Below the pieces are notes generated by a model. The model made no database searches. It saw only the letters and a list, made by a program, of their open reading frames with translations, and was not told where the DNA came from. This document shows positions 48,441 through 51,214 of a DNA stretch of 64,000 nt, piece after piece (position 1 is the stretch's first letter; every line of letters starts with the position of its first letter). The stretch lies in assembly GCA_016180815.1 (NCBI GenBank), contig JACPAN010000013.1, positions 54,939-118,938 on the forward strand, written 5' to 3'. The translations under genes were made by a program, and so were the position numbers. Source of the DNA: Elusimicrobiota bacterium (GTDB lineage: Bacteria > Elusimicrobiota > Elusimicrobia > JACQPE01).

Positions 48441-48560
48441 AGTTAACCAATAATTAACTAAAACCGGCCTTTAGCTCAATATCAGGTAGCCGGGCCTTTG
48501 GGCCCGATCTTTTTAGTCTTTGGATTCAGGACGCCTGCCTGCCACCCTGTTACCCTCATG
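48441..48560 (+). repeat. ~120-bp intergenic direct repeat, copy A
   Basis: agttaaccaataattaactaaaaccggcctttagctcaatatcaggtagccgggcctttgggcccgatctttttagtctttgg...ccctgttaccctcatga; about 90% identical to copy B by eye. Confidence 0.75.
48491..48515 (+). terminator. intrinsic-terminator-like hairpin inside direct repeat copy A
   Basis: cgggcc-tttg-ggcccg stem-loop followed by atcttttta. Confidence 0.35.
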
Positions 48561-48596
48561 ATTATGAACGAAAGCTTAAAATCGGGAAGCCAGGAA

Positions 48597-49340
48597 ATGA
48601 ACAAGGCAACAACGCCGCAGCCTGCGATGCGGGGCCTGCGCATGACAACTCTCCTCATAGCGTTCGCTGCGGTGCAGATGCGGATGACGGCGCCGGCAGC
48701 GGCATACTTCGGCCCGGTCCTAAAAGAGGAATCTGAAGTTTACAATTTCAATCCAGACGATCCCCCAATGAGCGTGACTTGGTACCGCAATCCAAGCGAA
48801 GAAGTGATGAGGATTTTTGGCCGGCTCTTTGAGATTTTACCGCGATTCCACCCGTCTGTAATGCCCGTTATCTTGGAATACAAGACGGAAATAGATGTTG
48901 CTCCCGCCTATGTAGTAAAGACAAAAGAGCTTTATCTTTATGGTCTTGGCCCCGGCAGCGGCGTTATTGTCATTACCTACGAATTGCTGGAACTTGTTCG
49001 CAACGAGCATGAGTTGGCCCTCATTATTGCCCACGAACTAGCTCATGTTCAATTGGAACACGTTAAAAAAGTCACAAGCAAAAGCCGGCGGCTGTACGAG
49101 CGGGAAGCTGATATCGTTGGAGCCCTCTACATGCAGGAAGCAGGTTTTAATTGCAAGGAGGCCGAGGGAGTATTCAGACATTCTTTTGAAGTTGACTGGG
49201 CCCGCGCTACAACCCTTTTTATGCCCCCTGAAGAAGAGACCCGAGACTGGGTAGCGAGACTCCATGAGATTAGATACGAGGAGGGCAACCGTGATGCCTA
49301 TCCAGAAAGGCTCAATGTATTGCGCAAGGTTTGCAAATGA
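48597..49340 (+). CDS. secreted HExxH zincin-like protein (M48-like or DUF4157-like), paralogue A
   Basis: Signal-like N-terminus; RNEHELALIIAHELAHVQLEH followed by READIVGALYMQEAGFNCKE; roughly 50% identical over the core to 52752..53468. Confidence 0.55.
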   Translation: MNKATTPQPAMRGLRMTTLLIAFAAVQMRMTAPAAAYFGPVLKEESEVYNFNPDDPPMSVTWYRNPSEEVMRIFGRLFEILPRFHPSVMPVILEYKTEIDVAPAYVVKTKELYLYGLGPGSGVIVITYELLELVRNEHELALIIAHELAHVQLEHVKKVTSKSRRLYEREADIVGALYMQEAGFNCKEAEGVFRHSFEVDWARATTLFMPPEEETRDWVARLHEIRYEEGNRDAYPERLNVLRKVCK

Positions 49341-49371
49341 CGCGGCAAGGGAACGGTCGGTCAGCGTTGCG

Positions 49372-49824
49372 ATGATCAAAAAAGCGATTTTGTGTCTGGC
49401 CGTCCTTTTTTGCCTGAGCATGACTTTCGGGCAACAATGGGCTTTAGCTGATACCGACCACCTCTATAACGACTCGCGCCGGATTTTTGACGGCGGGCAG
49501 CAAGGAGAAGGGGGCGGTGGGACGCTCGGGTTGCCGGGGTCCATGCCGGTGGCAGCGAAAACGACGGAAACGGCCCCTACGCCGTCCCCGGGAAAAACCC
49601 CAGACAAAAAAGTCCTTAAAGCCAAAAAATCGCCGGCTCGCTTTGTTCGCGCCGCGGCAACCGCGACGTTGGTTACCGGGGTCGCCGGGTTTTTCTTGGG
49701 GGTCGCCCTAGCCGTTATGGTGGCCCTGTTCCCTTACCTCTGGATCGCCCTCGCTGGTTTTGCGTTGACTGTTTTGGGTTACAACCTCTCAAAACTCGGC
49801 AAATCCTTGGGCAAGAAAACCTAA
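49372..49824 (+). CDS. hypothetical membrane protein (signal plus C-terminal TM pair)
   Basis: Signal-like MIKKAILCLAVLFCLSMTFG; RRIFDGG motif; C-terminal hydrophobic pair. Confidence 0.5.
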   Translation: MIKKAILCLAVLFCLSMTFGQQWALADTDHLYNDSRRIFDGGQQGEGGGGTLGLPGSMPVAAKTTETAPTPSPGKTPDKKVLKAKKSPARFVRAAATATLVTGVAGFFLGVALAVMVALFPYLWIALAGFALTVLGYNLSKLGKSLGKKT

Positions 49825-49875
49825 CAAAGCGCCTCCGGTAAACCCATTCCAGCCCTACTGGAATTATATACATTT

Positions 49876-49898
49876 TCATGTCATAATATATGACATGA
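49876..49898. promoter_or_regulatory. candidate operator: 9-bp inverted repeat overlapping the start codon of the HTH gene
   Basis: tcatgtcat-aatat-atgacatga; the ATG at 49895 lies in the right arm; AT-rich -10-like cataat within. Confidence 0.4.
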
Positions 49899-50440
49899 AG
49901 TATCTTATTGAGGTGGCCCAGGACAGCAAAGGCCGGCTCTACCTCAAAAGAGCGACGACCGCGGGCAAGCCCGCCTACAAACGAATCTGCACCTCTCAAG
50001 ACGCTTCGCGCAAACTGCAGCGATCAAGACGGCAAATTTACCGTCTTCTTGAGACGCAGGTCATTAAAACACACGGAAAATTTCTGGGTGAATGGCTTTT
50101 AGATTTAGAAGGTGTCGAAAAATTGGCGGGTTTGCCCAAATCTTTAAAAAAACCGCCCAAGAAATTTCAAGTCCTGTTTCCAGAATATCCCATCAACCAA
50201 ATTAACCCTTACCGTGACGTTAGGCTCATGCTCTCCCGCATCCTTGACCAAGGCACTCGCCAAGAGATGAAATGGGTACTGCGGCGATACCCGATTAGCG
50301 CCATCCGCGATTTCTTGAAACAGGACGGCTCACGGGTTCTTTCGGCTAAATCGTTGCGCCTTTGGAGTCTTTGTTTTGACGTGAAACCATCCTTGCCGCC
50401 AAAATGGCGCCTATCCGGACGCGCTTGGGGGGGAGCGTAA
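49895..50440 (+). CDS. putative HTH DNA-binding protein, candidate antitoxin partner of the downstream AbiEii-like gene
   Basis: Sits 6 nt upstream of the toxin-like gene; SRRQIYRLLE resembles an HTH recognition helix; start codon lies inside a 9-bp inverted repeat. Family assignment tentative. Confidence 0.45.
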   Translation: MKYLIEVAQDSKGRLYLKRATTAGKPAYKRICTSQDASRKLQRSRRQIYRLLETQVIKTHGKFLGEWLLDLEGVEKLAGLPKSLKKPPKKFQVLFPEYPINQINPYRDVRLMLSRILDQGTRQEMKWVLRRYPISAIRDFLKQDGSRVLSAKSLRLWSLCFDVKPSLPPKWRLSGRAWGGA

Positions 50441-50446
50441 ACCTTT

Positions 50447-51100
50447 ATGCCCTGGCATCCCCAAGCCATGACAAATGATTGCCGGCAAACTGCGCGCCTG
50501 CTTTTGACGCTGCCCCAATTAAAAAAATTTTATTTGGCCGGAGGCACGGCGCTGGCGCTTCAGTTTGGGCATCGGGTCTCCATGGATTTGGACTTTTTCT
50601 CCCCGGATTACCCGCTTGACCCTAGTCATTTGGAGGCTTTAAAAACGGGGCTTCGTAAGATAGGACGCTTCGCCATTCGCAAAGAAGAAGAAGGTACCCT
50701 GCACGTTGTTATTTTGGAAACGGCCGTCAGTTTTTTGCGCTACCCCTACCCTGCGCTGAAACCTCTTCTATCCTGGGAAGGCTTAGCGGTCGCTTCCTAC
50801 GAGGATATCGCATTGATGAAAATCGGCGCCATTATCGGGCGGGGAGCCAAAAAAGATTTTATCGATCTTTACACAATCAGTCAGAAAATCCCGTTAACGG
50901 ATCTATTGAAACTGTCCGAGCAAAAATTCAAGCATTCGGCCGACTTTTATCTGCAAGCGGCCAAGGCCCTTGTTTACTTTGACGACGCGGAATCAGACCC
51001 AAGCCCCAGGTTGCTTAAGCCCGCGCGTTGGCCCCAAATCAAAAAATACTTCGAGCAAGAAGTCCCCAAGGCCGTAAAAGTCATCCTCAAGTCTAGTTAA
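50447..51100 (+). CDS. AbiEii/DUF1814-like nucleotidyltransferase (type IV toxin-antitoxin toxin family)
   Basis: N-terminal LAGGTALALQFGHRVSMDLDFF matches the remembered AbiEii/DUF1814 signature (GGTAL...R-S-DLDF). Confidence 0.6.
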   Translation: MPWHPQAMTNDCRQTARLLLTLPQLKKFYLAGGTALALQFGHRVSMDLDFFSPDYPLDPSHLEALKTGLRKIGRFAIRKEEEGTLHVVILETAVSFLRYPYPALKPLLSWEGLAVASYEDIALMKIGAIIGRGAKKDFIDLYTISQKIPLTDLLKLSEQKFKHSADFYLQAAKALVYFDDAESDPSPRLLKPARWPQIKKYFEQEVPKAVKVILKSS

Positions 51101-51214
51101 CCAACAGTTAACTAAAACCGACCTTTAGCTCAATATCAGGTAGTCGGGCCTTTGGGCCCGATCTTTTTAGTCTTTGGTTTCAGGATATCCGCCGCCGCCC
51201 CTGTTACCCTCATG
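51095..51214 (+). repeat. ~120-bp intergenic direct repeat, copy B
   Basis: agttaaccaacagttaactaaaaccgacctttagctcaatatcaggtagtcgggcctttgggcccgatctttttagtctttgg...ccctgttaccctcatga. Confidence 0.75.
51145..51168 (+). terminator. intrinsic-terminator-like hairpin inside direct repeat copy B
   Basis: cgggcc-tttg-ggcccg stem-loop followed by atcttttt. Confidence 0.35.

Follow-up and report, generated by a model that had tools for sequence, protein, structure and literature searches.

A duplicated 121-nt intergenic unit around a zincin and toxin-antitoxin segment of an Elusimicrobiota genome: a candidate operon-boundary control region

Two direct repeats bracket about 2.5 kb of DNA in a stretch of 64,000 nucleotides from an Elusimicrobiota bacterium (the window, to which all positions refer). 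Do these repeats mark the ends of a mobile cassette, do they encode a structured RNA, or are they regulatory DNA that has been duplicated? The original prediction had left the choice between a duplicated or recombined module and a repeated promoter/terminator unit. The genes and directional features described here lie on the + strand; palindromes are given without strand.

The repeat consists of 121 nt. A repeat search aligned 48441-48561 with 51095-51215, 108/121 positions matching (89% identity) at a start-to-start distance of 2654, which bears out the two copies of about 120 bp and about 90% identity that had been described. The 13 mismatches fall at unit positions 11, 13, 27, 50, 84, 92-94, 96, 100, 101, 103 and 104, and an exact 33-mer and another 22-mer are common to both copies. 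There are only two copies in the window, as found both by a whole-window repeat search and by a profile search with filters off. A search of the window with 20-mer and 33-mer cores, up to 3 mismatches being allowed, detected no third copy, the chance expectation being 0.00. In Logan assemblies of six independent sequencing runs, SRR12113383, -384, -385, -419, -425 and -431, each from a different sample, the contigs are 100% identical to the window and break at the shared 33-mer, the exact place where a k=31 graph must branch. The repeat is thus genuine and not a product of assembly. What looked like a structural variant at the end of Logan contig L003 proved to be the tail of a Nextera adapter.

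Both copies run from the vicinity of a stop codon toward the start codon of the next gene. Copy 1 (48441-48561) fills the gap between the gene at 47828-48430, the last of an upstream multi-gene run (44299-48430), and the gene for a protein that we call zincin 1; it begins 10 nt after the stop codon of the former. Copy 2 (51095-51215) starts 3 nt 5' of the TAA stop codon (51098-51100) of an AbiEii-family gene and stops 28 nt short of the start codon at 51244. Thus the 5' edge of either unit is within 10 nt of a stop codon and the 3' edge is 28-35 nt ahead of a start codon, which in both cases has its own Shine-Dalgarno-like sequence. The gaps holding the units are 166 and 143 nt long, the gap ahead of the toxin-antitoxin pair described below is 70 nt, and the other gaps in the run 44299-54313 are mostly 40 nt or less. 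Overall, the same-strand island, which encodes orphan secreted and membrane proteins, has few long gaps, and the units occupy two of them.

The content of the bracketed segment is as originally described (from Pfam, with membrane segments assigned by eye): a zincin-like gene, a gene for a small membrane protein, a helix-turn-helix (HTH) gene and an AbiEii-like gene. Zincin 1 (48597-49340) is M48-like (E=1e-10), contains a HELAH motif and has a signal-peptide-like N-terminus; its start codon was set by homology with zincin 2. The small membrane protein (49375-49824) has hydrophobic segments, as judged by eye, and no Pfam match, and is weakly similar to the island protein encoded at 44996-45544. 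Copy 2 heads an operon at 51244-54313 that encodes a 193-aa secreted protein (51244-51825), a protein of 282-300 aa (51836 or 51890 to 52738), zincin 2 (52752-53468) and a 282-aa protein (53465-54313). Zincin 2 is indeed a paralog of zincin 1 (47% amino acid identity, BLASTP E=2e-56), but it is located 1.5 kb past copy 2 and not just outside the segment, as had been stated. The two paralogs are saturated at synonymous sites, with a dS of 2.7, and a search for homologs of zincin 1 returned only zincin 1 itself and its in-window paralog. In the upstream run, the genes at 47828-48430 and 46668-47204 form a paralog set (BLASTP E=4e-10). The gene at 47232-47810 looks by eye to be related to this set through a C-terminal motif.

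The view of the segment as a duplicated or recombined module holds in a weak sense only: the unit was copied at some time and its direct repeats could still recombine, but the 2.5-kb segment carries no sign of a mobile cassette. As predicted, no integrase or transposase, nor any other recombinase, is found in ORFs of at least 100 aa in the 64-kb window, in a scan that took in all but the central two-thirds of the 6071-aa ORF. The unit has neither terminal inverted repeats nor a target-site duplication; its ends, AGTTAACC... and ...CCCTCATGA, are not inverted repeats of each other. A foreign origin of the four genes was rejected on composition, their GC content and GC3 (0.54-0.65) being indistinguishable from those of their neighbors. 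Furthermore, other parts of the island hold paralogs of two of the four, those for zincin 1 and the membrane protein. The segment is identical in the six samples, whose contigs contain no cassette-less or circular variant, and this leans toward an invariant segment. Most likely, the segment is not a mobile cassette and the repeats are not the ends of one.

A related idea is that the repeats are chiefly footprints of recombination. A block consisting of zincin 1, the membrane protein and the toxin-antitoxin pair could have come in by Campbell-type integration of a circle on which the unit was present once, or through unequal crossing-over, and could again be lost or amplified through the direct repeats, as a recA-dependent cassette. 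Direct repeats of about 120 bp around a block of genes are what a single crossover or an unequal crossing-over leaves behind, and the shared 33-mer and 22-mer suffice for occasional homologous recombination. In addition, to judge from known toxin-antitoxin biology, which has been reviewed for integron cassettes (PMC13108822), a pair inside the block would select against loss of the block. However, the flanking copies have diverged by 11% in a block pattern, so any such event must be old, and the native composition of the genes, their island paralogs and the uniformity of the six samples all speak against this history, which we consider quite unlikely as the chief explanation. It would account for the origin of the copies and not for their continued conservation, and therefore complements the explanation favored below more than it competes with it.

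The size of the unit, its intergenic site, the same-strand genes and the embedded toxin-antitoxin pair recall the chromosomal cassette arrays of the Vibrio type and the ERIC and Correia elements, a likeness that serves as a lead only. If it held, the unit would be a dispersed non-autonomous repeat (MITE, REP or ERIC-like) or an attC site, and the region a cassette array minus its integrase. This is highly improbable and has been largely refuted. A dispersed repeat is at odds with the missing terminal inverted repeats and target-site duplication, and with the presence of two copies in the window and none in the GTDB representative genomes, JGI metagenomes, IMG/VR, PLSDB or phage genomes. An attC site is an imperfect palindrome over its whole length, in which R''-L'' pairs with L'-R' in the single strand, and clusters of such sites without an integrase are known as CALINs (PMC4889954). 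Like the members of a CALIN, the units here are repeats of about 120 bp that follow genes in a same-strand array, with a toxin-antitoxin pair in one interval. Unlike them, both sites fail the attC structure: for each copy, the predicted single-stranded DNA fold of either strand has just three small local hairpins and does not pair end to end, R and L boxes are missing, the ends do not fit RYYYAAC ... GTTRRRY, and neither IntI nor a tyrosine recombinase was found in the window. The interval, moreover, comprises four genes and has its own predicted promoter, and the sites are only two and lie upstream of functional-looking ribosome-binding sites.

What, then, does the unit contain? Its elements follow in the order palindrome, GC hairpin with T-tract, 13-nt variable block and TGtTACCCT. 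We hold, at somewhat better than even odds, that the unit is a duplicated control region of operon boundaries, combining a terminator, a promoter and possibly an operator. Of the two alternatives raised originally, the repeated promoter/terminator unit is thus the favored one, given the location at operon boundaries, the terminator-like hairpin and a TGnTAnnnT element 39-46 nt ahead of the next start codons. It agrees with this that both copies precede unrelated genes, so that one of the refuting conditions named originally leans this way, as does the invariance of the segment in the six samples.

The hairpin resembles an intrinsic terminator. In copy 1 (48491-48514) it is CGGGCC-TTTG-GGCCCG followed by ATC and T5, and in copy 2 (51143-51168) the same hairpin is followed by T5, its stem being lengthened to 8 pairs by a C-to-T change at unit position 50. 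In both copies a GC stem of 6-8 bp with a tetraloop is followed, 1-3 nt beyond the stem, by five T residues, and is located 60-80 nt downstream of a stop codon, as the sequence of an intrinsic terminator should be. The hairpin and T-tract had been described originally and were called in both copies by a terminator scan, which overall barely exceeds its background (15 found vs 10.4 expected); the hairpin is also kept in every fold. We infer that it ends transcription of the upstream operon.

The variable block covers unit positions 92-104 (48532-48544 in copy 1 and 51186-51198, where it is CCG-rich, in copy 2) and contains 8 of the 13 mismatches, a clustering with p = 3e-4. Its length is kept while its sequence is essentially randomized; outside it, 103/108 positions match. 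Such a block fits the spacer of a promoter, or a loop. It is followed by TGtTACCCT (48548-48556 in copy 1; 51202-51210, 42 nt before the ATG at 51244, in copy 2), a candidate extended -10 element. TGnTAnnnT is a form of the sigma-70 extended -10 element, and a canonical, TTGACA-like -35 hexamer is optional for promoters of this class. TGTTACCCT matches this form, with TGn directly upstream of the TAnnnT hexamer. The similarity between the copies stops 5 nt past TGtTACCCT, near the expected start of transcription. Exact TGTTACNCTC has three occurrences in the 64 kb, each in an intergenic region on the + strand, with a + strand gene downstream of it; the third, at 63410, is the related TG-T-TACACT with TTGCGT 17 nt upstream. 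No recognizable -35 hexamer is present 17-18 nt upstream of TACCCT, where the sequences are AGGACG/AGGATA or CAGGAC/CAGGAT. A generic sigma-70 scan found neither unit to contain a promoter, although its rules may not be those of this phylum. A sigma-54 promoter was rejected by eye, the GG-N10-GC spacing being a misfit and the site missing in copy 2. The conserved ATG at the end of the unit was also considered as the start of a leader peptide, but no ribosome-binding site precedes it, and chance alone would give open frames of 11-13 codons.

The palindrome at the 5' edge is AGTTAAC-CAATA-ATTAACT in copy 1 (48441-48459) and AGTTAAC-CAACA-GTTAACT, with perfect 7+7 arms, in copy 2 (51095-51113); it is a candidate protein-binding site or 3'-UTR hairpin. 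The predicted GTTAACC-N4-(A/G)TTAAC motif is contained in it, as AGTTAACCAATAATTAACT and AGTTAACCAACAGTTAACT. A third instance, AGTTAACCTTCTGTTAACC (21196-21214), is directly 3' of the stop codon of an M19 dipeptidase gene and 135 nt ahead of the 6071-aa ORF. The full pattern AGTTAAC-N5-RTTAACT has 4 sites in total vs 0.21 expected by chance. Each of the three palindromes with at most one mismatch lies no more than 10 nt from a stop codon, and the next start codon follows 135-156 nt later; the weaker site at 44147 is the fourth-best non-self match of the profile search (E=1.2). Support for the palindrome comes from one independent extra occurrence, and the same is true of TGTTACNCTC. The region 21196-21330 is aligned collinearly with the unit by MAFFT and is a marginal match in the profile search (E=0.07). 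Its homology to the unit beyond the palindrome was rejected as unproven, 553 and 1224 of 2000 shuffles having scored as well.

Put together, these elements suggest how the unit might work. The first ~75 nt would be the 3' untranslated end of the upstream operon, with a short palindromic hairpin or binding site immediately 3' of the stop codon, and then the GC hairpin and T-run that would halt transcription. The last ~45 nt would be the promoter of the next operon, consisting of a T-rich stretch, a spacer of fixed length and TGtTACCCT as the extended -10 element. The transcription start would lie near the point at which the copies cease to be similar, each gene bringing its own 5' leader and ribosome-binding site. 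AGTTAAC-N5-RTTAACT, about 110 nt upstream of the start site, might be a shared operator through which a single regulator would act on both operons and perhaps on the giant ORF at 21331. Among the HTH proteins encoded nearby is a DUF4423-type regulator (56214-57071). We infer from the sequence that the unit was copied locally within the island, by duplication or homologous recombination, and that selection or gene conversion has since left it almost unchanged. On this view the 2.5-kb segment amounts to an operon of zincin 1 and the membrane protein that carries a self-regulated toxin-antitoxin pair at its 3' end.

The arrangement resembles an ordinary junction of an intrinsic terminator and an extended -10 promoter in that a GC hairpin with a T-run follows the stop codon, TGnTAnnnT precedes the start codon, the spacer length is kept and the similarity ends near the expected start. 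It differs in the missing convincing -35 hexamer and the extra palindrome at the 5' edge, and in that the whole ~120 nt is held far tighter than such signals require. Unit positions 14-83 are 70 consecutive near-invariant bases with 3 changes. A terminator and a promoter need not obviously hold so many bases, and the constraint looks more like that of an RNA, a platform for binding several proteins or a recent copy.

A structured RNA is therefore the alternative to be weighed here. The unit, or its first ~78 nt, might be a small RNA processed from the tail of the upstream mRNA, with the shared terminator at its 3' end, or an attenuator in which the terminator hairpin has a rival in an alternative helix (unit positions 24-28 with 49-53). 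Identity over positions 14-83 is 96%, against a dS of 2.7 between the neighboring zincin paralogs. RNAalifold predicts a closed three-helix domain, ACUAAAA/UUUUAGU enclosing two hairpins, in which none of the 25 pairs is broken by the 13 differences, although the structure is predicted from the same two sequences that it explains. Copy 2 folds better than its shuffles (z = -2.9 for 51098-51174), but copy 1 does not (z = -0.3 to -1.2). A 5-bp helix overlapping the 5' arm of the terminator would be preserved by the paired changes G to A at position 27 and C to T at position 50, yet this compensation is not significant: of random pairs drawn from the 5 changed sites, 27% coincide with a possible stem, and p is ~0.1 once complementarity is required. 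There is no conserved promoter upstream of the unit, so an attenuator would have no defined transcript start, and no target complementarity was found on either strand of the window. The Rfam/Infernal scan that had been proposed as a check matched no family. With Rfam 15 at gathering thresholds the window gives no match, the best sub-threshold score (17.8 bits vs a cutoff of 58.7) covering the terminator only, and even at E up to 10 there is nothing beyond terminator-like noise. A tRNA fragment was also rejected: ARAGORN found none, and the D-arm-like stretch does not pair.

As in small RNAs derived from 3'-UTRs, conservation in the unit reaches from the stop codon to a terminator, and 20 consecutive nt within it do not vary and are left mostly unpaired by the predicted folds. 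In contrast to them, the unit has neither significant covariation nor a target match in the window, and its parent genes are unrelated. The case for a structured RNA is weak, and we regard this alternative as unlikely. A bolder version, which is rather doubtful, is that the unit is an Elusimicrobia-specific functional RNA or regulatory platform, either a three-helix RNA of ~78 nt produced from operon 3' ends or an attenuator, and that together with an AGTTAAC-N5-GTTAAC operator it co-regulates operons of secreted zincins and effector-like proteins and the 6071-aa gene. This would explain why ~100 non-coding bases are 96% identical beside paralogs saturated at silent sites.

Relatives of the unit were sought with exact 20-mers from its two best-conserved parts in the GTDB representative genomes and other collections. 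The sole match in a representative genome, inside a coding region of a Peptoniphilaceae MAG, is due to chance. Two patterns gave no match to the unit in JGI metagenomes, nor was there one in IMG/VR, or by blastn in plasmids (PLSDB) and phage genomes. Six-frame peptides of the unit used as protein queries gave no match at E up to 10, in a database that seemingly does not contain such truncated products.

If the duplicated control region is what the unit represents, its terminator, extended -10-type promoter (TGtTACNCT) and operator palindrome would be the first concrete candidate transcription signals in an uncultured Elusimicrobia lineage, and would indicate how adjoining operons of orphan secreted proteins may come under one control. 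The finding is real but fairly ordinary; it aids annotation and is not surprising. Its practical outcome is negative, in that the bracketed segment does not belong in a catalogue of mobile cassettes or genomic islets: a toxin-antitoxin pair can be flanked by direct repeats that are simply duplicated regulatory DNA.

The pair itself is a passenger within the bracketed segment and separate from the repeat. The second gene (50447-51100) encodes a putative nucleotidyltransferase toxin of the AbiEii family (AbiEii/DUF1814, PF08843, E=2.3e-17, 64 bits vs a cutoff of 22.5) and is matched by the PADLOC AbiEii models (E=8e-6). The first (49895-50440) encodes a DUF6922/HTH protein, the presumed antitoxin, with sub-cutoff matches to DUF6922 (24.8 bits, cutoff 27) and HTH_17 (19.6 bits, cutoff 27) and none to the AbiEi family in Pfam. 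A perfect 12+12 palindrome, TTTCATGTCATA-ATA-TATGACATGAA(A/G), overlaps the antitoxin start codon (49874-49900) and is probably the pair's own operator and promoter. AbiE is a type IV toxin-antitoxin and abortive infection system (PMC3985639). The pair resembles it in that two genes form an operon, the second of them for an AbiEii-family (DUF1814) nucleotidyltransferase, and the promoter palindrome suggests autoregulation by the product of the first gene. It differs in that this first gene weakly matches DUF6922/HTH_17 and not AbiEi. The closest AbiEii homologs (60% and 58% identity) have different gene neighbors, and neither the unit nor the palindrome is found downstream of these homologs in other Elusimicrobia. 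The pairing of DUF6922 with AbiEii is also present in two other contigs, L011 and L012.

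Two copies of a 121-nt non-coding direct repeat, referred to here as the unit, are located at 48441-48561 and 51095-51215. They are in direct orientation, align without gaps and are identical at 108 of 121 positions, so that the repeat of about 120 bp and 90% identity described in the original prediction is genuine. It does not stem from an assembly error: Logan assemblies, made separately from six sequencing runs, agree with the window at 100% identity. The contigs of these assemblies stop at 48520 and 51174 and start at 48494 and 51148, and these ends are the forced branch points of a k=31 graph at a 33-mer common to both copies. 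No third copy was found in a whole-window repeat search, and no further copies were detected in the window by mismatch-tolerant searches with the 20-mer and 33-mer cores (0.00 expected by chance) or by an unfiltered sequence-profile search. The sequence of the unit is undescribed and had no match in the other collections searched.

The unit begins with the palindrome AGTTAAC-N5-RTTAACT (unit positions 1-19), whose arms pair without a mismatch in copy 2 and with a single one in copy 1. It is followed by an A-run and the invariant stretch CCTTTAGCTCAATATCAGGTAG (positions 20-50), the hairpin CGGGCC-TTTG-GGCCCG (positions 51-66), extended to 8 pairs in copy 2 through C50T, a T5 tract (positions 70-74) and the T-rich invariant AGTCTTTGGWTTCAGGA (positions 75-91). 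The TTAAC-type motif and the hairpin attributed earlier to the repeat are thus present in each copy. A variable block (positions 92-104) reads CGCCTGCCTGCCA in copy 1 and TATCCGCCGCCGC in copy 2, and precedes the invariant 3' end, CCCTGTTACCCTCATGA (positions 105-121). The block has the same length in both copies and contains 8 of the 13 mismatches between them; the occurrence of 8 mismatches inside one 15-nt window has p = 3e-4 under uniform spread. Only 5 of 108 positions differ elsewhere (96% identity). There is no similarity between the copies 5' of position 1, and that 3' of position 121 fades within about 15 nt.

Every gene between 44299 and 54313 is on the + strand and most intergenic gaps do not exceed 40 nt. 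The gap ahead of the TA pair (the DUF6922/HTH and AbiEii genes) measures 70 nt, and the gaps holding the unit copies measure 166 nt and 143 nt. Copy 1 starts 10 nt past the stop codon of the gene at 47828-48430 and ends 35 nt ahead of the start codon of zincin 1 (48597), which was assigned from the homologous N-termini of zincin 1 (MNKATTPQP...) and zincin 2, the paralog at 52752-53468 (MKKLTPSKS...). The AbiEii stop codon lies within copy 2, whose 3' end is 28 nt ahead of an ATG at 51244 that has the ribosome-binding site GAGGAGG. The genes 3' of the copies, which encode zincin 1 and a secreted protein of 193 aa, are mutually unrelated, as are the genes 5' of them.

The simplest account that fits all the data is that the unit is a duplicated operon-boundary module, a reading to which we give somewhat better than even chances. 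The 3' end and terminator of the upstream operon would come first in such a module, the promoter of the next operon would follow, and the 5' edge might contain a shared operator. The unit has the sequence features of both an intrinsic terminator and an extended -10 element. The hairpins of both copies were called by a terminator scan, and TGTTACCCT, 39-46 nt ahead of the start codons, fits the extended -10 form TGnTAnnnT. Of the alternatives in the original prediction, a repeated promoter/terminator unit is the best supported. The unit contains no good -35 hexamer, and a generic promoter scan called no promoter in it. The exact sequence TGTTACNCTC occurs three times in the window, each time in an intergenic gap on the + strand and preceding a gene of that strand. 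The sole match outside the unit, at 63410-63419 (TGTTACACTC), has TTGCGT 17 nt upstream and lies 26 nt ahead of a GNA1162-like lipoprotein gene (63436-63960); it is a candidate promoter.

With up to two mismatches allowed, AGTTAAC-N5-RTTAACT has four sites in the window compared to 0.21 expected by chance. The strong site outside the unit, at 21196-21214, is directly 3' of the stop codon of an M19 dipeptidase and 135 nt before a 6071-aa ORF; beyond the palindrome, the similarity of this region to the unit is not significant. A weaker relative at 44147 is about 150 nt ahead of the first gene of the island of orphan secreted or membrane proteins surrounding both copies. This palindrome link to the giant ORF and the tight conservation are the only features that might raise the interest of the unit. 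An 18-nt direct repeat, AAACTAAC(G/C)GTTAATTAA, at 43516-43533 and 44145-44162 in successive intergenic regions at the island start, has a palindromic, TTAAC-rich sequence that may share an origin or function with the AGTTAAC-N5-GTTAAC motif.

Silent sites are saturated between the two zincin paralogs (dS 2.7, dN 0.45, Nei-Gojobori). One possibility is that the unit copies arose long after the zincin duplication, or that gene conversion has kept them alike, with a single CCG-rich block that is hypervariable. Another is that they are old and under strong purifying selection except in a spacer or loop where only length matters. We regard it as unlikely that the unit is a functional RNA, whether a small RNA derived from the 3'-UTR or an attenuator. 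RNAalifold predicts a domain closed by ACUAAAA/UUUUAGU around a small hairpin and the GC hairpin, with the variable block as the loop of a further hairpin; none of the 25 pairs is broken, in a structure derived from the same two copies. Copy 2 folds better than shuffled sequences (z = -2.0 to -2.9), whereas copy 1 does not (z = -0.3 to -1.2). G27A and C50T would be compensatory in a 5-bp helix that overlaps the 5' arm of the terminator, an antiterminator-like alternative, and simulation gives this coincidence a probability of about 0.1. Rfam returned nothing at gathering thresholds and only terminator-like noise below them, and ARAGORN found no tRNA. Statistically, the RNA reading is unsupported.

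The proposal of a recombined module fared less well, and the tests gave no sign of a mobile cassette. In GC and GC3 the cassette genes do not differ from their neighbours, and the six samples showed no junction lacking the cassette or otherwise variant. The ORFs scanned across the window (100 aa or more, with the giant ORF covered towards both ends) contain no integrase, transposase or other recombinase domains; the original prediction had likewise noted no integrase or transposase. An apparent variant at 2728-2745 of Logan contig L003 is a Nextera adapter tail and not a biological variant (contig SRR12113383_919416 ends in CTGTCTCTTATACACATC). It is unlikely that the direct repeats are a recombination footprint through which the segment could still be lost or gained in a recA-dependent manner; this reading would in part complement the operon-boundary one. 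A dispersed repeat or attC-like site is very improbable. The attC sites are defined by an end-to-end palindrome with R and L boxes (PMC4889954), whereas the unit, folded as single-stranded DNA, forms only three local hairpins and no end-to-end palindrome; it also lacks terminal inverted repeats. On the features tested it resembles neither attC/CALIN sites, nor MITE/REP/ERIC-type repeats, nor any Rfam family, and appears to work like an ordinary terminator-promoter junction.

The genes predicted between the copies (proteins MBI2070352.1 to MBI2070355.1) were all confirmed: an M48-like zincin, a small membrane protein without a Pfam match and weakly similar to 44996-45544, an HTH protein with DUF6922 and HTH_17 matches, both under Pfam cutoffs, and an AbiEii nucleotidyltransferase. 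The presumed antitoxin, of DUF6922/HTH type, differs from classical AbiEi. A perfect 12+12 palindrome, TTTCATGTCATA-ATA-TATGACATGAA, at 49874-49900 covers the start codon of the antitoxin gene and is probably the autoregulatory operator of the pair. Two other contigs, one from an Elusimicrobia MAG, also carry the DUF6922-AbiEii pairing, in unrelated surroundings and with no copy of the unit. The TA pair therefore behaves as a self-contained module of two genes, placed at the 3' end of the zincin 1 operon.

Most of the approximately 20 proteins of the 43.5-58 kb island have no Pfam match, and many have signal-peptide-like or hydrophobic segments. Paralog sets comprise 44996/45534, 46668/47828 and the two zincins (47% amino acid identity). 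The roughly 20 same-strand proteins, at 43574-58072, are flanked by ordinary metabolic genes, and several (44996, 45534 and 49375) have a C-terminal pair of hydrophobic segments. A DUF4423/HTH regulator is found at 56214-57071 and a third HExxH protein (HEYFH) at 57068-58072 on the minus strand.

The 6071-aa ORF (21331-39546, + strand) is single and uninterrupted, with a weak ResIII/DEAD helicase match near residues 645-730 and weak WD40-like matches near its C-terminus. Inverted repeats of hairpin type, GAAGCAATCTC-N~20-GAGATTGCTTC, occur within it at five or more places (at about 23843, 25233/25277, 27157/27194, 28152/28196 and 34919), and a 112-nt repeat (25209-25320 and 28128-28239) is the same element. 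In appearance they are palindromic elements of the REP or RPE kind that a coding gene carries in frame. Other REP-like palindromes, GTCATTCC(G/C)GCGAAAGC(C/G)GGAATCC, occupy several intergenic gaps (~41190-41300, ~43990-44030, 54342-54420 and ~59320-59385). The palindrome at 54342-54420 contains the ends of two Logan contigs (L005 and L006) and is therefore repeated elsewhere in the genome. The octamer GGGNCTTT is intergenic in 12 of its 25 occurrences in the whole window, compared to 1.3 expected (for example at 2131-2170, 7580, 9035, 15119, 39568, 41110 and 44203-44246); this strong enrichment could reflect a leader, hairpins or a motif associated with promoters. Upstream, the genes at 9171 and 15222 have a longer pattern in common, GGGTCTTT[AG]G..CAATCTTA.
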